Source: Minisyncoccota bacterium (GTDB lineage: Bacteria; Patescibacteriota; Minisyncoccia; Phycocordibacterales; UBA9973). Taken from it: 64,000 bases of DNA. Under the pieces are notes generated by a model. It was not told the origin of the DNA and made no database searches. It was given only the letters and a program-made list of their open reading frames with translations. Shown one piece after another: positions 3,785 to 40,118 of the stretch. The position numbers were made by a program, and so were the translations under genes. The DNA is taken from the NCBI GenBank assembly GCA_041666045.1, contig JBAYHR010000002.1, forward strand, positions 18,773-82,772, read 5' to 3'. Positions within the stretch are counted from its first letter, which is position 1; each line of letters starts with the position of its first letter.

Positions 3785-5785
3785 TTATAACAAGAAAGCA
3801 ACGATAAGCAAAGCTACGATGTTTAGAATTTTAATCATAGGGTTTATTGCTGGTCCGGCTGTATCTTTATAAGGATCTCCAACAGTATCACCAGTAACAG
3901 CTGCCTTGTGAGCATCTCCACCTTTACCTCCAAAGTTTCCACTTTCAATATATTTCTTAGCATTATCCCAAGCTCCACCACCAGAAGTCATAGAGATTGC
4001 TACGAATAATCCTGTGATGATTGATCCAACTAAAAGTCCACCAAGAGCAACTGGTCCAAGCAAGAATCCTACTAAGATTGGAACAAGTACCGGGATAAGA
4101 GCGGGTACAATCATTTGTTTAATAGCGCTTGTTGTAACTATATCTACGCACTTTCCGTATTCTGGTTTTCCTTCACCTGTCATAATTCCTTTTATCTCTC
4201 TAAATTGTCTGCGAACTTCGTCAACAACTTTTCCTGCAGTTTTTCCTACAGCTTCCATACAAAGCGCTCCGAAATAATATGGTAGAAGTCCTCCTATGAA
4301 TAATCCAACGATAACTTTTGGATTACTTAAATCAAATTTCATAACTTCTCCAGTGATAGCTTTTATTTCTTCTGTATATGCTGCGAACAACACAAGTGCT
4401 GCAAGTCCTGCAGAACCGATAGCATAACCTTTTGTGACAGCTTTTGTAGTATTTCCAACTGCGTCTAATGGATCCGTAACATCTCTAACTTCTTTTGGAA
4501 GTTCTGACATTTCTGCGATTCCTCCAGCATTGTCTGTGATTGGTCCATATGCGTCGATAGCTACGATGATTCCTGTCATCGAAAGCATAGACATTGCTGC
4601 TACTGCGATACCATAGAGTCCACCAAATTTATATGTAATTAAAATTCCAGTAACTATTGTTATAAGAGGAAGAGCGGTTGCTTTCATTGAGATAGCGAGT
4701 CCTTGGATAACATTTGTTCCATGTCCTGATAAAGATGCTTTGGCGATAGATTTTACTGGTGAGAATTTTGTTGAAGTAAAATATTCTGTAATAACAACAA
4801 GAGCTCCAGTTACAAAAAGACCTGTAAGGGCACAAATAAATAAATCCATTACAGAATAATCACTGCCGTTGTTAGACATTAATAATTTTGTGATAGGGTA
4901 GAAAGCTATTGCCGCAAGAATTCCTGATGCGATAAGTCCTTTGTATAGCGCGCCCATTATATTATTTTTCTTTCCTAATTTTACAAACCAAGTTCCGATG
5001 ATTGAACAAATAATTGCAATACCTCCTATTGCAAGAGGGTATAATATTGCTCCGCTGAAATTTACGAAAAGAAGTGATCCGAGTAACATTGTCGCTACAG
5101 ATGTAACAGCATATGTTTCAAAAAGATCTGCGGCCATTCCTGCGCAATCTCCAACATTGTCTCCAACATTGTCTGCTATAACTGCAGGGTTTCTTGGGTC
5201 GTCTTCTGGAATTCCAGCTTCAACTTTTCCAACAAGATCTGCTCCTACGTCAGCTGCTTTTGTAAAAATTCCTCCACCTAATCTTGCAAATACAGAAATA
5301 AGAGATGCTCCGAAACCAAGACCGATCAATGCTTTAATATCACCTGTGATTGCGTACAGTGTTGATACTCCCAAAAGAGCAAGTCCTACTACTAGAAGTC
5401 CAGTAACAACTCCTCCATTAAAAGCAACACTAAGAGCTTGCTTCAATCCACTTTTTGCGGCTTCTGTTGTTCTAACATTTGCTCTCACTGATACATTCAT
5501 TCCGATATATCCAGCGAGTGCTGAAAGTACTGCTCCTAGAATAAATCCAATAGCTGAATTAAATCCTAAACCAAACCATAAAACAAAGAAAAGAATTATA
5601 GCTATAACTCCAATAGTTTTGTATTGTCTATTTAAATAAGCTTTTGCTCCTTCTTTGATAGCTTCTGCGATAGCTTGCATTTTTGCATCACCGGCATTCT
5701 TTTTAAGAATTGATTTAGTAAGCAACAATCCATAGATGATAGCTACAATAGAACTAATAATTGCAAACAATAAATATATATTCAT
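3785..5785 (-). CDS. hppA: Membrane-bound proton-translocating pyrophosphatase (V-type H+-PPase)
   Basis: Motifs [41 protein letters not shown] and [18 protein letters not shown]. Polytopic membrane protein of 666 aa. Confidence 0.95.
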
Positions 5786-5931
5786 CCCGTTTAGAAATTA
5801 AACTATTCGTACATATAATATTTATATATAAAAATAGATAATTCGTTACTTTTAATAATTTGATCCCGTTTTGTGAATTTCTAACGGGATTCATATTTTT
5901 TATTTTTTATTAATAATAATTTTTAATATTT

Positions 5932-12749: not shown

Positions 12750-14399
12750 ATGAAAAATTTTTCAGAGCTTCTTCAAACATTGCTTCAAAAAAGGGGAATC
12801 ATAAACATTGAAGACGCAGATATATTTTTAAATCCAAATTATGAAAAAGATTTCAAGGATCCTTTTTTGATGCACGATATGGAGAAAGCTTGTGTGAGAC
12901 TTTTTGAAGCGATAGATACAAATGAAAAAATAATTATTTATGCGGATTATGATTGTGATGGCATTCCAGGGGCAGTTATTTTGCAGAATTTATTTAAAAA
13001 AATTAATTTTAAAAATTATGAAGTTTACATTCCTCAGAGAAATTCCGAAGGGTATGGACTCAATCTTGAAGCTATAAAAATTTTTGCTGATAAGAGAGTG
13101 AAACTTTTAATCACAGTCGATCTTGGCATCACTGCAATTGCTGAAGTAGCTCAAGCTGAAGTGGATGGTATTGATGTAATAATTACAGATCATCATTTAC
13201 CACAAGAAACACTACCTCGAGCTTATGCAATTTTGAATCCTAAGGTGGATAATTATCCAGAAAAGATGCTCTGTGGTGCTGGAGTTGTTTTTAAATTTGT
13301 TCAAGGTTTTATAAAAAAATATGGAGAATATTTTAAAATAAATTCTGGTTGGGAAAAGTGGCTTCTTGATATGGCTGGCATTGCTACACTTTCTGATATG
13401 GTTCCACTTACGGGAGAGAATAGAGCGTTCGCATATTTTGGAATGAAAGTTTTAAGAAAAACTCCACGTTTAGGTTTGCAAAAACTTTTTGCAAAAATGA
13501 ATATAGATCAGAAACATCTTACAGAAGATGATATTAGTTTTATGGTCGTGCCGAAATTAAATGCAGCTTCTCGTATGGACGACCCTATGAGAGCTTATGA
13601 AATACTTTCTACAGATGATGTGGCAGAGGCAGGAGCTTTAGCGAACCATTTATCAAAAATAAATGACGATAGGAAATTAATTGTCGCAGGAATAATGCGT
13701 GAAGTAAATAAAAAATTTGAGAAAAGAGAATTGAAAGATGTGATAGTGGTAGGTAATCCTCTTTGGAAAGTCGGAGTGCTTGGTATTGTAGCTGGAAAAA
13801 TTTCTGATGAATATGAAAAGCCAGTTTTTGTGTGGGGTAAAGATGAGAATGATTGCATTAAAGGATCTTGCAGGTCAGATGGTTCTGTTTCAGTTGTTGA
13901 GCTTATGACAAGCATATCAGATTCATTTTTAGAATTCGGCGGGCATGAGCTTGCCGGGGGTTTCACTGTTTCTAATGAGAAGATTCATTTCTTAGAAGAT
14001 GAACTATCTGTCTCTTTTAATAAGATTAAAAAAATAAAAACGATAGATGATATTTCTTATGATGTTAAATCAGATTTGAGTATCGTTAATATGAAAAATT
14101 ATAAAGAAATAGAAAAACTTGCTCCGTTTGGAATAGGGAACATTAAACCTTCTTTTCTTTTTGAAAATGTGAAAATAGATAAGATAAAAAAGTTTGGGAA
14201 GAATGGTTCTGGGGAGCATTTAGAAATATCTTTTTCTGATTCTCGAGGTAGCGCTAAAGCTATTTCTTTTTTCTCAACTGTTAATTCTTTTAAGAATAAA
14301 TTAAGTGAAGGTTTGGGAGTTAATTTATTAGCAAACTTTGATCTTTCAAGATTTCGAGGAAAAGAAGAGCTTCGTTTGAGAATTATTGATATACTTTAA
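12750..14399 (+). CDS. recJ: Single-stranded-DNA-specific exonuclease RecJ
   Basis: DHH-family motifs (IIYADYDCDGIPGA, ITDHH), DHHA1-like GGHELAGG. Confidence 0.9.
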   Translation: MKNFSELLQTLLQKRGIINIEDADIFLNPNYEKDFKDPFLMHDMEKACVRLFEAIDTNEKIIIYADYDCDGIPGAVILQNLFKKINFKNYEVYIPQRNSEGYGLNLEAIKIFADKRVKLLITVDLGITAIAEVAQAEVDGIDVIITDHHLPQETLPRAYAILNPKVDNYPEKMLCGAGVVFKFVQGFIKKYGEYFKINSGWEKWLLDMAGIATLSDMVPLTGENRAFAYFGMKVLRKTPRLGLQKLFAKMNIDQKHLTEDDISFMVVPKLNAASRMDDPMRAYEILSTDDVAEAGALANHLSKINDDRKLIVAGIMREVNKKFEKRELKDVIVVGNPLWKVGVLGIVAGKISDEYEKPVFVWGKDENDCIKGSCRSDGSVSVVELMTSISDSFLEFGGHELAGGFTVSNEKIHFLEDELSVSFNKIKKIKTIDDISYDVKSDLSIVNMKNYKEIEKLAPFGIGNIKPSFLFENVKIDKIKKFGKNGSGEHLEISFSDSRGSAKAISFFSTVNSFKNKLSEGLGVNLLANFDLSRFRGKEELRLRIIDIL

Positions 14400-14471
14400 G
14401 TACTTGTCCCGTTAGAAATTCAACTTACGGGAGTAAAGATAAAATTATTAATATTTAAAATTTCTAATGGG

Positions 14472-14942
14472 ATGAATGAAGATAAAATTATAATTTATTC
14501 AGATGGAGCAGCGAGAGGTAACCCAGGCCTTGCAGGTTGGGGATCTGTTTTTATTTTAGGTAAAAAAGTTTTTGAAATTGGCGGAAGAGAAAAACATGCT
14601 ACAAACAATCAGATGGAACTTACAGCAGCGATTGAAGCCTTAAAATATTTAAAGAGACATTCGCATATTGCACAAGGTAAAAAAATAGAATTTTTTTGTG
14701 ATTCAAAATATGTGATTTTAGGAATTACAGAATGGATACAAAATTGGATGAAAAACAATTGGCGCAACGCTGCCAAAAAACCAGTGCTCAATCGTAATCT
14801 TTGGGAAGAACTTTATTTTCTTAATAAAGAATTTAATCCCAAATGGAATTATGTAGAGGGTCATAGTGGTGATAAATATAATGATCGAGCGGATCTTATT
14901 GCTACAAGTTTTGCAGATGACGAACCTGTGGAACTTTTTTAA
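14472..14942 (+). CDS. rnhA: Ribonuclease HI
   Basis: SDGAARGNPG, ELTAAIEAL, GHSGDKYNDRADLIA (DEDD catalytic residues pattern). Confidence 0.9.
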   Translation: MNEDKIIIYSDGAARGNPGLAGWGSVFILGKKVFEIGGREKHATNNQMELTAAIEALKYLKRHSHIAQGKKIEFFCDSKYVILGITEWIQNWMKNNWRNAAKKPVLNRNLWEELYFLNKEFNPKWNYVEGHSGDKYNDRADLIATSFADDEPVELF

Positions 14943-14974
14943 AAATATATTTTTTAAATTTTTATAATAAAAAA

Positions 14975-16480
14975 ATGCGAGACAAAATTTTTTATTTATC
15001 TTGTTTTGGGTTTGAAATAGGCGTGTTAATCAGTTCATTCTTTTTTGTAAATTTATATTTAATTACGTTAATCAGTATTGTCTTCTTAGGTTTGTTTTTA
15101 TTTTTTTTATTTGTCTCAAAATTAAAATGGTGTATACTTTTTTGTATTTTTATTTTAACTATATCATTAGGAATTTTTAGGTTTCATAATGCAGATAAAC
15201 CAGCTCCTTATGTTTTTGAATCTATAGTTGGAGAGAAAGTTAATTTTAGTGGATTGATAATTGATGAAGTGGATGAAAGAGAAAACAATCAGAAATTAAC
15301 AGTCGAAGTTTTGTCTCCTCAAGGTCTTGACTTGGACTCTTTAAAGGCAAAGCCTTTTCCCGCAAAAACAAAAATTCTTTTAACTGCAGATTTTGAACAA
15401 GAATTTAAATACGGGGATACCATAAATTTTTTTGGAAAACTTGAAAAACCTGAGAATTTTTACACAAACACTGGCAAACTTTTTGATTACATTAATTATT
15501 TACATAAAGATGGGATTTTTTATTTAATAAAAAATCCAACTACGGAAATTATATCTCGTGGTGGTGGAAGTTTTGTAAAAAGAAAACTGTTTTCTTTTAA
15601 AGATAAATTTTTAGATAAAATAAATTTTGTTATACCAGAGCCAGAATCTTTGCTTATGGGTGGACTTATTTTAGGTGAACGATCTTCTTTTGACGAATCA
15701 ATGCGTCAGGCTTTTGTAGATACTGGAACGATACACATTATAGCTTTGTCTGGTTACAATGTGACAATTGTCGCAGAGTGGATTATGAAAATATTTTCTT
15801 TTTTTCCTCGTAATATTTCTTTTAGTTTTGGTATTTTTGGTATTTTACTTTTTGTTGTGATGGCTGGTGGCGCTTCTACTGCTGTGCGAGCAGGAGTAAT
15901 GGCAACCTTAGCGCTTATTGCGCGCGCGACAGGGAGGGATTATGATGTCGCGCGCGCACTTGTGTTTGCTGGTGTAATAATGACGATTCTCAATCCTTTT
16001 GTTTTAGCTTTTGATGTGTCTTTTCAACTTTCTTTTATTGCTACGATTGCTGTGATATTTTTTGCCCCTAAAATGGAAAAATATTTTATGTGGATTACAA
16101 AAAGATTTGGTTTACGCGATGTTGTGTGTATAACTTTTTCTGCTTATCTTTTTGTTTTGCCTTTTATACTTTATAAAATGGGAAATTTGTCTATCGTTGC
16201 ACTGCCAGCAAATATTTTAATTCTTCCATTTATTCCTATTACTATGATTTTTGGTTTTATTACAGGTTTTATAGGACTCATTTGGTCAGTATTTTCAATT
16301 CCTTTTGGTTTTGTTTCTTATTTATTTTTACATTATGAATTATCTATAATTTCCTTTTTCTCACATTTGTCATTTGCGTCTTTTGCAATTCCAAATTTTC
16401 CGTTATTAATTACATTAATAGTTTACACTTATTTTATTTACAGACTTTTTGGAAAAAATATTAAAAAGTTTTTTAACTAA
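14975..16480 (+). CDS. comEC: ComEC/Rec2 competence-channel membrane domain (first part of a split comEC)
   Basis: Polytopic membrane protein with the ComEC signature ...GTIHIIALSGYNVTIV... Confidence 0.8.
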   Translation: MRDKIFYLSCFGFEIGVLISSFFFVNLYLITLISIVFLGLFLFFLFVSKLKWCILFCIFILTISLGIFRFHNADKPAPYVFESIVGEKVNFSGLIIDEVDERENNQKLTVEVLSPQGLDLDSLKAKPFPAKTKILLTADFEQEFKYGDTINFFGKLEKPENFYTNTGKLFDYINYLHKDGIFYLIKNPTTEIISRGGGSFVKRKLFSFKDKFLDKINFVIPEPESLLMGGLILGERSSFDESMRQAFVDTGTIHIIALSGYNVTIVAEWIMKIFSFFPRNISFSFGIFGILLFVVMAGGASTAVRAGVMATLALIARATGRDYDVARALVFAGVIMTILNPFVLAFDVSFQLSFIATIAVIFFAPKMEKYFMWITKRFGLRDVVCITFSAYLFVLPFILYKMGNLSIVALPANILILPFIPITMIFGFITGFIGLIWSVFSIPFGFVSYLFLHYELSIISFFSHLSFASFAIPNFPLLITLIVYTYFIYRLFGKNIKKFFN

Positions 16481-32272: not shown

Positions 32273-32327
32273 ATTGCCTGTCCCGTCAGAGATTTCTTAA
32301 TCTCGTTCGGGATGATATAATTACAGG

Positions 32328-34256
32328 ATGCCAATAGGTGATAGAGAAAAATTAAACAGACTTGAGGAATTGAAAAGTAAACTATTTAGTAGAAATTATA
32401 AAATGCCAGATCTAACCCATGGCGGATTTTCTCGCGGGCTAAAGAAAGATGTTCCAGATTCTTGGGCTACTAAAGAAGAAGAAAAAAAGCTTGAAGAAAA
32501 ATTTTATATGAAAACATCTATGTTTAAGAAATTCTTTATTTTCTCAATAGTCTTTTTTGTTTTAGCTTTGGGTTTTGCGCTTTATATGTTTTTGGGAGGA
32601 GGCAATACTGTTTCAAATAATAATATTGATATTTCTATATTGGGAAATGCATTTACTGCAGGAGGAGAAGAATTGCCATTACAAATTGAAATAATAAATA
32701 AAAATAATTCTCCACTTGAACTAGCTGATCTTTTAGTAGAATATCCAAAAGGTTCATCTGTTGATTTGTCGCAAGATGCAGAACGTTTGCGTAGTTCATT
32801 AGGAACAATTCCAGCAGGTGGAGTACGAAATGAAAATGTGAAAGTTGTATTATTTGGAGAGCAAGGCAGTATAAAACCGTTAAAAATTTCTCTTGAATAT
32901 AGAATACAAGGTTCTAATGCTATTTTCGTTAAAGAAAAACTGTACGAAGTAACAATAAGTTCTGCACCCATAAATCTTTTAGTTGATGCTCCGACAGAAG
33001 TAAGTCCAAATCAGGATTTGGTTTTAAATGTTAAATCTATTTTAAATGCTACAAAAGCTGCATCAAAAATACTTCTTAAACTTGATTATCCAGTTGGATT
33101 TGAATTTACATCTTCAAATCCAGCACCGTCTTTTGGCAATAATGTCTGGAATCTTGGAGATCTTGCCCCGGGGACAGAACGTGATATTTCTATTGTTGGC
33201 AAAATGGTTGATGTTTACGATGGTGAAGAAAAAACATTTCATGTATTTAGTGGATCACAAAGTGATTCTGATAAATCAGTGATTGGTGTAGTGTTTAATT
33301 CTTTAGGTCATACAGTTATGATAAAAAAACCTTTCATTGAAGCAAAGCTTTATGTGAATGGTGTTTATCAAAGAGAATATGCCACAGATACAAAAACTCC
33401 AATACAAGGTGAAATTCGTTGGGTAAATAATTTAGAAACAAAAATAAATGATTTGGAAATTCGCGCAAAAATTTTAGGTAATGCAGTAGATAGAAAAACA
33501 ATTTCCGCGCAACAAGGATTTTATAATTCTTCAATAGACACAATAATTTGGGATAGAAATTCTTTAAGTCAATTTGAAGAAGTAAATCCTGGAGATTCTG
33601 GATCTGTTGGTTTCTCTGTATCTCCAGTTTCATTATTTTCAGGAAGCGGGGGAATGTTGTCTAATCCATCAGTAACCATAGAAGTTTCCATAGCTGGCAA
33701 ACAACCACTTGAAGGTAATGCGGTAAAAGTATTAAATAATTCAGAATCAAAAATAATAAGAATTACTTCTGACGTTGGACTTGCCACAAAAGCACTTTAT
33801 TATTCTGGACCTTTTACAAATACTGGGTCTATTCCACCAAAAGTAGAACAAGAAACTACTTATACTATTACGTGGTCTCTTTCTAATTCTGCAAATAATA
33901 TTTCAAAAGCTAAAATAAATTCTACGCTTCCTTCATGGGTTAGATTTATGAATGCAATTTCTCCTTCTACTGAAGATTTAACATATAATGCTTCTACAAA
34001 AGAAATAGTTTGGAATATTGGGGCTATTCCAAAGGGTGTAGGGATAACAGGTGGAGAGAGAGAAGTTTCTTTCCAAATTGCTTTAACACCTTCACTTTCA
34101 CAAGTTGGAACCGCTCCTGTGATAATAAATGATGCAGTTTTGACCGGACACGATGATTTTGCTAATGTAGATGTACGGGTAAATAAATCTTCTTTAAATA
34201 CTCGTCTTTCGAATGATTCTCTTTTTTCAACTACTGGAGATAGAGTTATAAATTAA
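32328..34256 (+). CDS. Membrane-anchored surface protein with CARDB/DUF11-like repeats, hypothetical
   Basis: Cytoplasmic N-terminus, one TM helix, then repeated beta-modules (VWNLGDLAPGTERDISIVG etc.). Confidence 0.6.
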   Translation: MPIGDREKLNRLEELKSKLFSRNYKMPDLTHGGFSRGLKKDVPDSWATKEEEKKLEEKFYMKTSMFKKFFIFSIVFFVLALGFALYMFLGGGNTVSNNNIDISILGNAFTAGGEELPLQIEIINKNNSPLELADLLVEYPKGSSVDLSQDAERLRSSLGTIPAGGVRNENVKVVLFGEQGSIKPLKISLEYRIQGSNAIFVKEKLYEVTISSAPINLLVDAPTEVSPNQDLVLNVKSILNATKAASKILLKLDYPVGFEFTSSNPAPSFGNNVWNLGDLAPGTERDISIVGKMVDVYDGEEKTFHVFSGSQSDSDKSVIGVVFNSLGHTVMIKKPFIEAKLYVNGVYQREYATDTKTPIQGEIRWVNNLETKINDLEIRAKILGNAVDRKTISAQQGFYNSSIDTIIWDRNSLSQFEEVNPGDSGSVGFSVSPVSLFSGSGGMLSNPSVTIEVSIAGKQPLEGNAVKVLNNSESKIIRITSDVGLATKALYYSGPFTNTGSIPPKVEQETTYTITWSLSNSANNISKAKINSTLPSWVRFMNAISPSTEDLTYNASTKEIVWNIGAIPKGVGITGGEREVSFQIALTPSLSQVGTAPVIINDAVLTGHDDFANVDVRVNKSSLNTRLSNDSLFSTTGDRVIN

Positions 34257-39374: not shown

Positions 39375-39377
39375 AAT

Positions 39378-39494
39378 TTGAATTTTCCCCTCCTTGTGGA
39401 GGAGGGGTGCCTAAAGGGCGGGGTGGTGATTTATTAAATTTAGAATTACCACCCCCAACCCCCTCCTTGAAAAGGAGGGGAGTTAAAATACAAA
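39378..39494. repeat. GC-rich three-hairpin repeat, copy 1 (SD/anti-SD-like hairpins cccctcctt-N4-aaggagggg flanking a GGGTGGT...ACCACCC hairpin)
   Basis: 100% identical over ~114 nt to 40005-40118. Confidence 0.9.
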
Positions 39495-39499
39495 ATACA

Positions 39500-39859
39500 A
39501 TGAAAACCATTCATAATATAAAAAAATTATTTTATAGAAGAAAAGAATTAAGAAACAATAGTACTCCTCAAGAAATTTTATTGTGGTTGAAATTAAAAAA
39601 TTCTCAGCTTGGTTTTAAATTTCGTCGTCAGCACAGCATAGGTGGATATATTGCTGATTTTTATTGTCCTTCTAAAAAATTAGTTATTGAAATTGATGGT
39701 TCACAGCATTTTAAAGAAGAAGCAAAAAAATATGATGATATAAGAAGTAATTATTTTGAAGGTCTTGATATAAAAGTTTTGCGTTTTACAAATGGCGAGA
39801 TAAATACTAATATGAGTGGAGTGTTGTTAAAAATAATAACACAATTAAGTAAAAAATAA
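39500..39859 (+). CDS. DUF559-family (Vsr-like PD-(D/E)xK) endonuclease-domain protein (the 39407 upstream extension is a repeat artefact)
   Basis: RRQHSIGGYIADFYCPSKKLVIEIDGSQH...VLRFTNGEI is a typical DUF559 signature. Confidence 0.8.
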   Translation: MKTIHNIKKLFYRRKELRNNSTPQEILLWLKLKNSQLGFKFRRQHSIGGYIADFYCPSKKLVIEIDGSQHFKEEAKKYDDIRSNYFEGLDIKVLRFTNGEINTNMSGVLLKIITQLSKK

Positions 39860-40004: not shown

Positions 40005-40118
40005 GTCGAATTTTCCCCTCCTTGTGGAGGAGGGGTGCCTAAAGGGCGGGGTGGTGATTTATTAAATTTAGAATTACCACCCCCAACCCCCTCCTTGAAA
40101 AGGAGGGGAGTTAAAATA
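40005..40118. repeat. GC-rich three-hairpin repeat, copy 2 (identical to copy 1). It ends 2 nt before the tatD ATG.
   Basis: Direct sequence identity with 39381-39494. Confidence 0.9.

Follow-up and report, generated by a model that had tools for sequence, protein, structure and literature searches.

Initiation codons that are paired in RNA are known from sequestering leaders, such as RNA thermometers or the MS2-type long-range helix that is opened by upstream translation, and these leaders are vertically conserved parts of their genes. Hairpins can also have a mobile origin, as is thought for the byp elements of Magnusiomyces mitochondria. Among small bacterial repeats, the Correia repeats of Neisseria are substrates of RNase III and alter gene expression, and the Rickettsia palindromic elements (RPEs), which occur in a reduced genome, are tolerated in-frame inside protein-coding genes (PMC10969869). 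The IS1380 and piggyBac elements share as hallmarks 4-bp target duplications and CC...GG termini or subtermini (PMC10045372; PMC10140906).

Here we analyze a helix that covers the start codon of rnhA in the window, by which we mean the whole 64-kb stretch of DNA under study. We consider it likely that the arms of this helix are the terminal inverted repeats of a non-coding mobile element of 66 nt, MITE-like and RPE-like, that inserted at the rnhA start, and from sequence comparison we hold with high confidence that the rnhA insert is a member of a mobile-element family.

Results

The start codon of rnhA is enclosed in a long-range helix

A repeat search identified two 14-nt arms with 93% complementarity, 14407-14420 and 14459-14472. 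Their core consists of 13 Watson-Crick pairs and one G-U pair (G14411/T14468), in agreement with the 14-bp helix described in an earlier note on this DNA, and the arms are separated by 38 nt (the spacer of 36 nt given in that note is shorter because its arms were longer). Outward, the helix extends by the pairs G14406-U14473, U14405-G14474, and U14404-A14475, and therefore every base of the rnhA ATG (14472-14474) is paired, which bears out the proposal that the 3' arm includes the start codon. By direct reading of the sequence, 14405-14421 is TGTCCCGTTAGAAATTC and 14457-14474 is AAAATTTCTAATGGGATG; the 5' arm had thus been placed correctly, and the 3' arm had been given as a string of 17 letters with coordinates that span 18, an off-by-one discrepancy. 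The minimum-free-energy fold of 14402-14480 was this 17-bp helix (-19.7 kcal/mol, z = -3.9), and 0 of 200 shuffled sequences folded as well. The rnhA start-codon helix is not due to chance. Folding also recovered the competing local hairpin between 14407-14415 and 14424-14432 (-9.3 kcal/mol) that the note had suggested. Without the 5' arm the start region of rnhA was unstructured (-4.0 kcal/mol, z = +0.65), which makes sequestration of the start physically plausible on an RNA that carries both arms.

The features of the insert and of the other copies in the window are collected in Table 1. Upstream lies recJ (ORF 12750-14399), which carries DHH, DHHA1, and RecJ_OB domains. To judge from its sequence, the hexamer TATACT in the last recJ codons is the ancestral promoter of a leaderless rnhA, its transcription start being a prediction. 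The pentanucleotide ACTTG between the recJ stop and the left arm occupies the place of the 4-nt direct-repeat copy that is present in most family members, and the rnhA copy has no target-site duplication. In the fold, the UUG of this flank forms G-U pairs with the UGA of AUGA. Among the matches listed, the copies with an AC(T/C)TG flank, which we refer to as class 2, occur in unrelated genomes and before unrelated genes. Directly before the gene-side arm, TAAAAT may serve as a putative internal promoter that would produce a 3-5-nt leader without the 5' arm; strong -10-like hexamers at this position were weakly enriched in the family (12/99 copies versus 5/99 in the mirrored position). No clear peak of -10 positions was found before class-2 flanks. 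The same element sequence is present on contig Ga0376277_0001250.

Table 1. Coordinates of the rnhA insert, of its surroundings, and of related features.
Feature	Position	Strand	Remarks
-10-like hexamer TATACT	14390..14395	+	within last codons of recJ; predicted +1 at A14402, 6 nt downstream
recJ stop TAA	14397..14399	+	7 nt before core helix, 4 nt before G-U extension
ACTTG, class 2 conserved left flank	14402..14406	+	AC(T/C)TG adjoins the arm in 16/105 start-codon copies
Palindromic insertion element, 66 nt	14407..14472	+	ends with A14472, the first base of the rnhA ATG
Left terminal inverted repeat, 5' arm TCCCGTTAGAAATTC	14407..14421	+	identical in the pyrophosphatase copy
Internal anti-arm CTTACGGGA	14424..14432	+	pairs with left arm to form the competing local hairpin
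-10-like hexamer TAAAAT	14456..14461	+	element interior plus arm extension, 10 nt before ATG
Right terminal inverted repeat, 3' arm AAATTTCTAATGGGA	14458..14472	+	T14468 replaces the usual C of the family; G-U in RNA
rnhA, RNase H, 156 aa	14472..14942	+	PF00075; start codon 14472-14474
Second copy	5785..5889	-	H+-pyrophosphatase start codon (gene label from earlier note)
Third copy	41586..41702	+	ssb start codon; relic ATG 41581-41583
Compact diverged hairpin TCCCGTCAGAGATT-TCTT-AATCTCGTTCGGGA	32281..32312	+	termini match family; adjoins TGATATAAT
Family termini TCCCGTTAGAA...TTCTAAYGGGA			terminal inverted repeats, invariant over 11 nt; pair also written TCCCGTTAGAA/TTCTAACGGGA

Relatives have an empty site at the rnhA start

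Aligning the junction from the recJ stop to the rnhA ATG produced a clean 68-70-nt gap at the element in 7 of 7 relatives, all of which have the same recJ-rnhA synteny, an RnhA protein 68-87% identical, and no helix. In the relatives (L121-L148), TATAAT or TATACT is kept 6-8 nt before the rnhA ATG, inside the end of recJ, which implies that rnhA is leaderless there. The presence and absence of the element are reciprocal: the rnhA site is filled in the window and empty in the 7 relatives, and L144/L145 carry a copy at the start of comEC, with the direct repeat TGCG, where the comEC start of the window (14975) is empty. By this sequence comparison, the element is an insertion that the orthologous sites lack. 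The start-sequestering helix proposed earlier thus stands as a structure, but not as a regulatory device belonging to rnhA. The helix is not specific to rnhA because it is absent in the 7 relatives, stands before unrelated genes, carries transposon-like repeats, and has in-frame intragenic copies; any regulation would therefore be a consequence or later adaptation of the insertion and not a device built for rnhA.

The insert belongs to a family that is tied to start codons

A scan for both arms, in which a spacing of 35-95 nt was allowed, found at least 120 loci, mostly in very diverse Patescibacteria MAGs; the element lengths of 59-117 nt hold within those limits. Labels among the matches listed include Nomura-, Kaiser-, Yanofsky-, Doudna-, Kerfeld-, Levyi-, and Saccharibacteria, and the few matches outside Patescibacteria, among those listed, are in Omnitrophota, Planctomycetota, and WOR-3 bins. 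Viral contigs gave only 2 matches, which argues that the family is not phage-borne. Beside the invariant 11 nt, pairing is kept at arm position 12 in 100% and at position 13 in 97% of the copies, with 4-5 pair types, versus 67% and 59% when partners are shuffled, so that the universal family helix has 13 bp. These two further covarying pairs show that pairing of the arms matters. Mismatches within the arms are few in all, and G-U and A-C mismatches, an imbalance of which would point to selection on the RNA, occur twice each. Exact 4-nt direct repeats, including TGAA, TGAG, and TGGA, adjoin the arms in 73 of the 121 copies listed, versus 10.5 expected from shuffled partners (maximum 18); as copies of a subfamily share descent, the family counts are not fully independent events.

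In the 121 elements listed, 105 arm ends (approximately 85% of elements) form an ATG in which the last A precedes TG, and 97 of these 105 ATGs open an ORF of at least 60 codons. From the window we estimate that approximately 45% would be at real starts if insertion merely targeted ATGRR sites. The downstream genes are unrelated, with 132 Pfam families among 97 proteins, and the orientation of the element relative to the gene is fixed. Orientation is visible also within the element: the anti-arm, and with it the local hairpin, is a strand-specific feature of the family that adjoins the gene-distal arm in 39/99 copies versus 1/99 in the mirrored arrangement, and a 4-nt bulge is found in the gene-proximal arm in 12 copies and in the other arm in 0. 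Apart from the anti-arm, the interior is not conserved between copies. Approximately 10 of 125 copies are intragenic and span long ORFs in-frame; they encode xPVR(S/N)...SNG(I/M)x in unrelated host proteins that have no mutual BLAST similarity. Genomes can hold multiple copies: L019 has 3 of them in a stretch of 3 kb, and L075 has near-identical pairs.

The window itself holds three copies, a density of approximately one per 20 kb, and the arm 11-mer with at most 1 mismatch occurs 6 times versus 0.7 expected (0 of 100 shuffles reach 6). In the pyrophosphatase copy, the direct repeats are TGAA on the minus strand (TTCA at 5781-5784 and 5890-5893 on the plus strand), the relic ATG is at 5894-5892, and the real ATG is at 5785-5783. 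The arms of this copy and of rnhA had been reported as identical; this is correct for the 5' arm TCCCGTTAGAAATTC (5875-5889, minus strand), but the 3' arm has one extra A in the pyrophosphatase copy. The ssb copy is flanked by TGTA at 41582-41585 and 41703-41706, its arms run on through GCCGCGGTC/GACCGCG with a 4-nt bulge ACCT, and it folds at -47.5 kcal/mol (z = -7.2). The spacers of the window copies are unrelated to each other, as had been noted. The hairpin at 32281-32312, which is followed by TGATATAAT, 6 nt, and an ATG at 32328, is by its termini probably a relative of the family.

Searches for known RNAs did not identify the element. Rfam 15 gave 0 matches in the window at gathering score, only chance-level matches (E >= 1) for 14350-14520 at E <= 10, and none on the elements in 18 other loci, and a tRNA/tmRNA scan of the window found none. 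The literature searched, with the 11-mer and on MITEs or repeats and leaderless translation in CPR/Patescibacteria, does not describe the element. As judged from sequence, this is thus a MITE-like, RPE-like family with no description found in Rfam or in that literature.

Genes of the window are largely leaderless

The genes of the window largely start without a leader and without a Shine-Dalgarno sequence: in 15 of 59, a -10 hexamer stands exactly 6 nt upstream of the ATG, and any SD-like tetramer was found in 7 of 59. In the majority class of elements, the frame that starts at the relic ATG crosses the element without a stop in 33/66 copies, versus 10/66 for each other frame, and in 36/66 the element length is a multiple of 3, so that this frame ends at a TAA 4 nt before the real ATG. 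These statistics hold for class 1, whereas the rnhA copy is of class 2 and has a stop in this frame at 14455-14457. An upstream ORF on the same strand is present in 10 of 15 class-2 copies, and nine of these ORFs have their stop 4-11 nt ahead of the arm. In many copies of the family, the stop of the upstream gene is in or just before the left flank.

The family combines features of several known systems

Like Correia repeats and MITEs, the elements are short (about 60-120 nt) and non-coding, have terminal inverted repeats and short target-site duplications, occur in many copies per genome, are present or absent among relatives, and would form an RNA hairpin when co-transcribed. They are small and multicopy, with insertion polymorphism, as MITEs are, and the target-site duplication is found, in addition to the copies counted above, at ssb and the pyrophosphatase gene of the window, although not at rnhA. 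No autonomous element or transposase with the family termini was found in the window plus about 200 loci (approximately 1.2 Mb), nor were arm pairs 0.5-3 kb apart or an ORF bounded by arms; the search for autonomous copies or solo arms gave degenerate or truncated copies only, and we know of no parent insertion sequence. In Correia elements the repeats measure 26 bp and the duplication is TA, whereas this family has 11+2-bp repeats and 4-nt duplications, is start-codon-tied (~85%) and gene-oriented, and has termini that are identical across classes and phyla with largely unrelated interiors. For a MITE, an 11-mer that stays exactly the same from phylum to phylum is unusual; this could reflect a function in RNA or protein recognition. 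The likeness to RPEs is one of features, and similarity in sequence would not be expected: both are palindromic and found in-frame in unrelated protein genes, although the copy at rnhA is not one of those within genes. RPEs, about 100-150 bp long, are confined to Rickettsia and mostly intragenic, whereas most members of the family lie at start codons, their 4-nt duplications are clear, and their hosts are Patescibacteria and other uncultured phyla. With IS1380 and piggyBac it shares the 4-nt duplication and the T-CCC...GGG-A ends, but there is an extra T/A outside CCC/GGG and the duplication is TGAA/TGAG/TGGA and not TTAA. No IS1380-like transposase was found or linked to the family in the fetched loci, and we treat this resemblance as a lead.

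Like sequestering leaders and coupled genes, the rnhA insert pairs the initiation codon, offers a competing upstream hairpin, and has an upstream cistron that ends beside the helix base. Unlike them, it is recent and common to unrelated genes, with no sensing element identified, no match to a curated RNA family, and no conservation at the orthologous gene. A hairpin between matching short sequences also recalls ribosome shunting and bypassing (CaMV 35S leader, T4 gene 60, Magnusiomyces byp), with a duplicated ATGNN and take-off and landing sites that would meet at the stem base; unlike in those systems, an ordinary relay frame ending 4 nt before the real ATG would do in many copies. REP/REPIN sequences, which are mobilised by RAYT, have no target duplication, bear a 5' GTAG-type tetranucleotide, and are extragenic and lineage-specific; here we found 4-nt duplications, no GTAG, and termini common across phyla. 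Integron attC sites close a cassette on its 3' side and have 5'-RYYYAAC ... GTTRRRY-3' around an imperfect palindrome. In the family, the core-like hexamers are reversed (GTTAGAA ... TTCTAAC) on both strands and stand at gene 5' ends with direct repeats. Both attC-like core sites and similarity to the Neisseria DNA-uptake sequence were rejected on element order, position, and cross-phylum spread. A hammerhead-like reading of CUGAUGAG-UCCC was rejected as the flanks vary.

Discussion

The data are best read as an insertion event with possible effects on translation. The site of insertion would be precisely the start codon of rnhA, with the ancestral leaderless promoter of the recJ end on one side and the ATG on the other, and the ATG would now take its A from the last base of the element. 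Transcripts that start at the recJ-end promoter or read through from recJ would carry both arms and form a 15-17-bp helix that pairs all of the AUG and sets the recJ stop, 4-7 nt before the helix base, beside it. A ribosome finishing recJ could then open the helix base, and rnhA would be translated mainly at that moment and be damped otherwise; during transcription, the local hairpin may transiently leave the 3' arm free. That the helix really affects rnhA translation is a possibility toward which the fold points, although we would lean slightly against it, and the specific mechanism of coupling between recJ stop and rnhA start is doubtful. If TAAAAT starts RNAs that have no 5' arm, the main rnhA mRNA would at no time contain the helix. 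More broadly, these elements might be phylum-spanning, translation-compatible mobile hairpins, adapted to leaderless, Shine-Dalgarno-poor hosts, that relay ribosomes across the insert. Insertion would take place at a gene's first bases, where the terminal A and the duplicated TGNN would rebuild the start codon, and the stem would hold the relic ATG or an upstream stop against the rebuilt AUG. Ribosomes would cross either by reading a short frame that closes 4 nt upstream of the AUG or, at the base of the stem, by termination-reinitiation or hopping. Class 2, as present at rnhA with its ACUUG flank and G-U pairs over the AUG, would be a derived form, through which a gene inside an operon would come to depend strictly on the preceding gene being translated. 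Taken as a whole, this full scenario is speculative and somewhat unlikely.

A dedicated cis-regulatory switch of rnhA, in which the local hairpin would be the ON state and the AUG-hiding helix the OFF state, perhaps in response to temperature, a ligand, or a protein, is very unlikely. The two stable alternative structures (-9.3 versus -19.7 kcal/mol), the strand-specific anti-arm of the family, and the class-2 UUG flank, which covers the whole AUG by G-U pairs that are workable in RNA only, would suit such a switch, but the helix is missing at the orthologous junction in the 7 relatives, the identical module stands before unrelated genes and inside coding regions, most copies have transposon-like direct repeats, the interior is unconserved except for the anti-arm, and Rfam gave no match above chance even at E <= 10. 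We also regard as unlikely, although compatible with a mobile origin, that the helix serves RNA processing, by which an RNase III-type cut at the duplex base would free a leaderless rnhA mRNA from read-through transcripts. The universal helix is just 13 bp, which is short for RNase III, the invariant termini are equally explained by transposase binding, and cleavage would destroy the in-frame intragenic copies. For processing speak the dependence of the organism on leaderless starts, the 11 bp of duplex that do not vary between phyla, as recognition by a protein would lead one to expect, the coincidence of the helix base with the A of AUG in ~85% of the copies listed, and the cutting of Correia inverted repeats by RNase III in Neisseria (PMC10969869).

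That the helix is irrelevant in RNA, the repeat acting only in DNA as transposon ends while the TAAAAT of the element starts the mRNA 3-5 nt before the AUG, is rather unlikely. This hexamer immediately precedes the 3' arm both here and in 5 further copies, its position is enriched for -10-like hexamers in the family, and the start region is open when the 5' arm is missing; the enrichment is weak, however, a GC-rich arm-extension subfamily has no such hexamer, the hexamer-ATG spacing is 10 nt versus the 6 nt typical of the genome, and the promoter at 14390-14395 and recJ read-through should still yield RNA with both arms. Two operator half-sites for a DNA-binding repressor bracketing the rnhA promoter would account for an 11-bp sequence conserved across phyla in inverted copies around AT-rich, promoter-like DNA. 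This regulon reading was rejected and is extremely improbable: arm spacing is variable, being continuous over the whole allowed 35-95 nt, positions beside the motif covary to maintain pairing, direct repeats and in-frame intragenic copies occur, and the functionally unrelated downstream genes form no common regulon and have orthologous promoters without the site. An intrinsic recJ terminator, or an inverted repeat that arose by chance, is equally improbable. The location directly after the recJ stop and a GC-rich stem base in a 31% GC genome would fit a terminator, but there is no U-tract and a terminator scan of 14250-14600 gave 0 sites, on which this candidate was rejected; chance is ruled out by the shuffle statistics and more than 120 homologous copies elsewhere.

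A mobile element at the rnhA start explains, for annotation, a recurrent and very stable hairpin at Patescibacteria gene starts that is mistakable for riboswitches, operators, or terminators. It also indicates that tiny, streamlined genomes carry an abundant mobile element with ends conserved across classes. Near-confinement to start codons and to one orientation is unusual for MITEs and implies either that initiation sites are recognised in transposition or that selection strongly favors copies compatible with translation. In organisms in which many mRNAs begin at the AUG itself, the element gives a structured leader to a gene that had none. It constitutes a natural experiment on how their ribosomes initiate internally, and it is a possible source of translational coupling or dosage control for housekeeping genes, rnhA, ssb, and the pyrophosphatase gene among them.

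The rnhA start codon lies in a stable predicted helix

In the window sequence, TGTCCCGTTAGAAATTC lies at positions 14405-14421 and AAAATTTCTAATGGGATG at 14457-14474. A repeat search detected these arms as two 14-nt segments (14407-14420 and 14459-14472) with 93% complementarity and a separation of 38 nt, together with a competing local pairing (14407-14415 with 14424-14432). RNA folding of 14402-14480 predicted a 17-bp helix of -19.7 kcal/mol (z = -3.9), and none of 200 shuffles was equally stable. In this fold the core helix is lengthened by the pairs G14406-U14473, U14405-G14474 and U14404-A14475, and therefore the entire rnhA AUG is paired. The local hairpin by itself folds with -9.3 kcal/mol, and the start region minus the 5' arm is predicted to be unstructured (-4.0 kcal/mol, z = +0.65). 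The earlier note had described a start-sequestering helix here, which was correct overall except that its 3' arm coordinates were off by one base; the local hairpin that it proposed for the 5' arm and the inclusion of the rnhA ATG in the 3' arm were both recovered.

Coordinates of the rnhA region, of element copies in the window and of unusual copies at other fetched loci (L numbers)
Feature	Sequence	Position	Remark
rnhA ORF	window	start 14472	product with PF00075
Gene upstream of rnhA	window		RecJ domains in product
TATACT (-10-like hexamer)	window	14390-14395	counterpart of the relatives' hexamer within recJ
Element copy	window	5785-5889, minus strand	start of gene labelled pyrophosphatase by the earlier note
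Element copy	window	14407-14472	rnhA start
Element copy	window	41586-41702	ssb start
In-frame intragenic copy	L004	2402-2472	compact, GC-rich
In-frame intragenic copy	L091	1986-2059	compact, GC-rich
In-frame intragenic copy	L038	2535-2605	compact, GC-rich
In-frame intragenic copy	L056	1149-1216	compact, GC-rich
In-frame intragenic copy	L097	1152-1219	compact, GC-rich
In-frame intragenic copy	L114	6689-6759	compact, GC-rich
In-frame intragenic copy	L094	5691-5755	compact, GC-rich
In-frame intragenic copy	L060	2235-2305	compact, GC-rich
Tandem, nested or back-to-back copies	L051	452-514
Tandem, nested or back-to-back copies	L086	6199-6288
Tandem, nested or back-to-back copies	L026	4711-4790
Tandem, nested or back-to-back copies	L076	658-775
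Tandem, nested or back-to-back copies	L068	1965-2037
Tandem, nested or back-to-back copies	L117	6503-6640

The rnhA copy arose by insertion

In metagenome relatives with RnhA proteins 60-87% identical, recJ is mostly found directly upstream of rnhA. The junction reads ...GATATAAT/GATATACT-stop-(2-4 nt)-ATG in seven aligned relatives, and the window junction contains 68-70 bases more. A -10-like hexamer in the last recJ codons is conserved 6-8 nt upstream of the rnhA ATG in the aligned relatives, and from its window counterpart, TATACT, transcription is predicted to start at A14402, a base that was probably the first of the original rnhA ATG. Relatives have family members at other sites. A close homologue of the 66-nt rnhA-type copy stands ahead of another gene in L134, L135 and L137. 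L144 (3011-3090; also L145) carries at the comEC start (ComEC MRDKIFYIVCFGF...) a class-1 copy, the majority type with 4-nt direct repeats and an old "relic" ATG ahead of the hairpin. The duplication there is TGCG, and the window comEC start at 14975 (site 14960-14980) is empty, reading TATAAT, 6 nt, ATGCGAG. Presence and absence at the rnhA and comEC sites are thus reciprocal between relatives, as a mobile element predicts. At the level of sequence comparison, this shows that the rnhA copy is an insertion and that the two strands of the helix are the inverted repeats of a mobile palindromic insert at the rnhA start codon.

Within the window, TCCCGTTAGAA has 6 matches at no more than one mismatch (0.7 expected). 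They form three inverted pairs, all intergenic and all ending ...CGGGATG at a start codon. The ssb copy (41581-41706) and the pyrophosphatase copy (5781-5894, minus strand) have intact 4-nt duplications, TGTA and TGAA, respectively, and each keeps a relic ATG on the upstream side of its hairpin. The arms of the ssb copy (fold -47.5 kcal/mol) continue through GCCGCGGTC/GACCGCG, where a 4-nt bulge (ACCT) is conserved; this bulged extension is also seen, with compensatory changes, across many other genomes.

The genome has a GC content of 31%. A -10-like hexamer is located exactly 6 nt upstream of the ATG in 15 of the 59 called window genes, often TATAAT-like with a TG extension (e.g., 10060, 12750, 14975, 21321, and 32328), and any Shine-Dalgarno-like tetramer is present in only 7 of 59, so that many of the mRNAs are probably leaderless. 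A compact hairpin at 32281-32312 (site 32278-32330), TGTCCCGTCAGAGATT-TCTT-AATCTCGTTCGGGA, has the same termini in diverged form; it directly follows the stop of the upstream gene and adjoins TGATATAAT, with the ATG at 32328 6 nt further, and may be a diverged minimal family member on a leaderless promoter. GC-rich palindromes of a different kind, unrelated to this element family, flank the ORF at 39407-39859 in otherwise AT-rich surroundings (39377-39410, cccctccttgtggaggaggg; 40090-40125, ctccttgaaaaggagggg).

The element family is widespread and lies mostly at start codons

We took one representative genome for each species and searched it for the two arms, TCCCGTTAGAA and then TTCTAAYGGGA, with 35-95 nt between them; at least 120 loci matched this pattern. 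The exact 11-mers and 35-95-nt interiors bound the family as counted, the invariance of 11 arm positions is built into the pattern, and copies inside subfamilies are related rather than independent events. By the labels of the deposited MAGs, the matches listed include Nomura-, Kaiser-, Yanofsky-, Doudna-, Kerfeld-, Levyi-, Jorgensen- and Saccharibacteria, and a few Omnitrophota, Planctomycetota and WOR-3 bins for which mis-binning is possible. Only 2 matches were found in 2.9 million viral contigs. An Rfam search with the elements returned no matching family, and the literature searched contained no paper with the 11-mer in a relevant context and none on such repeats in these phyla. One Parcubacteria contig with two element copies also carries a group I intron (L037 3154-3454; RF00028, 57.8 bits).

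Among the matches listed, the 4 nt beside the two arms are identical in 73 of 121 copies (shuffled partners: mean 10.5, maximum 18), as TGAA (34), TGAG (13), TGGA (10), TTGA (5), TAAA (3) and others, and many of the others are a single mismatch or a shift of one base away from identity. These direct repeats are the signature of target-site duplication. Because the element ends in A, an ATG is rebuilt wherever the duplication starts with TG: 105 arm ends in the 121 listed elements (approximately 85% of elements) give ATG, and 97 of these 105 begin ORFs of 60 codons or more. The window has 30 ATGRR sites at gene starts and 36 in other intergenic DNA; sequence preference and purging from coding regions thus predict approximately 45% at real starts, not 92%. 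The downstream genes are unrelated (97 proteins, 132 Pfam families among the matches listed). In listed class-1 copies, -10-like hexamers peak 6-7 nt upstream of the left, relic ATG, meaning that the old leaderless start is still upstream of the hairpin. In other listed copies the left repeat contains the upstream gene's stop, and insertion split an old ATGA or TAATG stop-start overlap while both genes were kept.

Arm positions 12 and 13, although variable, are paired in 100% and 97% of the copies listed, with 4-5 pair types (67% and 59% with shuffled partners). Orientation is asymmetric among these matches: the short internal anti-arm YTARCGGGA, which pairs with the left arm, lies beside the gene-distal arm in 39 of 99 copies versus 1 of 99 mirrored, and within the extended-arm subfamily 12 copies have their 4-nt bulge in the gene-proximal arm and none has it in the opposite one. 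The relic-ATG frame (M-x-P-V-R...) is open across the interior in 33 of 66 listed copies versus 10 of 66 per other frame, and the length is divisible by three in 36 of 66, in which case this frame ends at a TAA 4 nt upstream of the real ATG.

Approximately 10 of 125 listed copies, mostly compact, GC-rich and 64-74 nt long, lie in frame within long ORFs and encode xPVR(S/N)...SNG(I/M)x in host proteins without mutual similarity. They add approximately 24 residues in one constant element frame and strand, and two internal hairpins are predicted. Elsewhere, gene-side arms in tandem with an ATG after each, nested copies, and back-to-back copies with one common 4-nt repeat suggest that existing copies were hit by further insertions or underwent slippage. 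A lone gene-side arm at a start codon (L093 2030-2055, ACATTTCTAACGGGATG) may be what is left of an element that lost its other parts.

The rnhA copy belongs to class 2, which comprises 16 of 105 copies listed and carries a conserved A followed by CTTG or CCTG (AC(T/C)TG) where other copies have the left 4-nt repeat. By reading of the sequences, these copies precede unrelated genes, including those for EF-P, ribosomal proteins and LexA. A same-strand ORF is found upstream of 10 of 15 listed class-2 copies; it stops 4-11 nt before the arm in nine of them (7 nt for rnhA) and extends into the arm in one. In class 2, UUG pairs with the UGA of AUGA via G-U pairs, and in most copies a T replaces C in the 3' arm, which gives a further G-U pair. 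This pairing fits RNA and not DNA but, as the copies are related by descent, is no more than suggestive.

Comparison with known systems and proposed mechanism

The family has the architecture of a MITE, but a search of the window and approximately 200 fetched loci found no parent transposase, and the rnhA copy lacks a duplication. Unlike typical MITEs, it is almost exclusively at start codons in fixed orientation, with an open relay frame and with termini identical in deeply divergent lineages. The in-frame intragenic copies resemble Rickettsia palindromic elements, and the inverted-repeat hairpin on mRNA resembles Correia elements, which are cleaved by RNase III (PMC10969869). The stated hallmark of IS1380/piggyBac, a 4-bp duplication with CCC...GGG subtermini (PMC10045372), offers a lead toward the missing transposase.

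Transcripts that start at the recJ-end promoter or read through from recJ would carry both arms of the rnhA copy. The local hairpin could form first, and the long-range helix, approximately 10 kcal/mol more stable, would then pair the AUG. The data do not fit a riboswitch specific to the gene, a pair of operators or a terminator, and these readings were excluded. Double-strand RNase cleavage of the duplex could regenerate a leaderless rnhA mRNA, and transcripts started at the element's internal TAAAAT (14456-14461) could bypass the helix entirely; neither possibility excludes the reading that we favour, translational coupling to recJ. The helix base would bring the recJ stop, 4-7 nt away, beside the rnhA AUG, roughly restoring the 2-4-nt stop-start spacing of relatives. 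Translation of rnhA would be damped and would depend on a ribosome that completes recJ and thereby opens the G-U-rich helix base.
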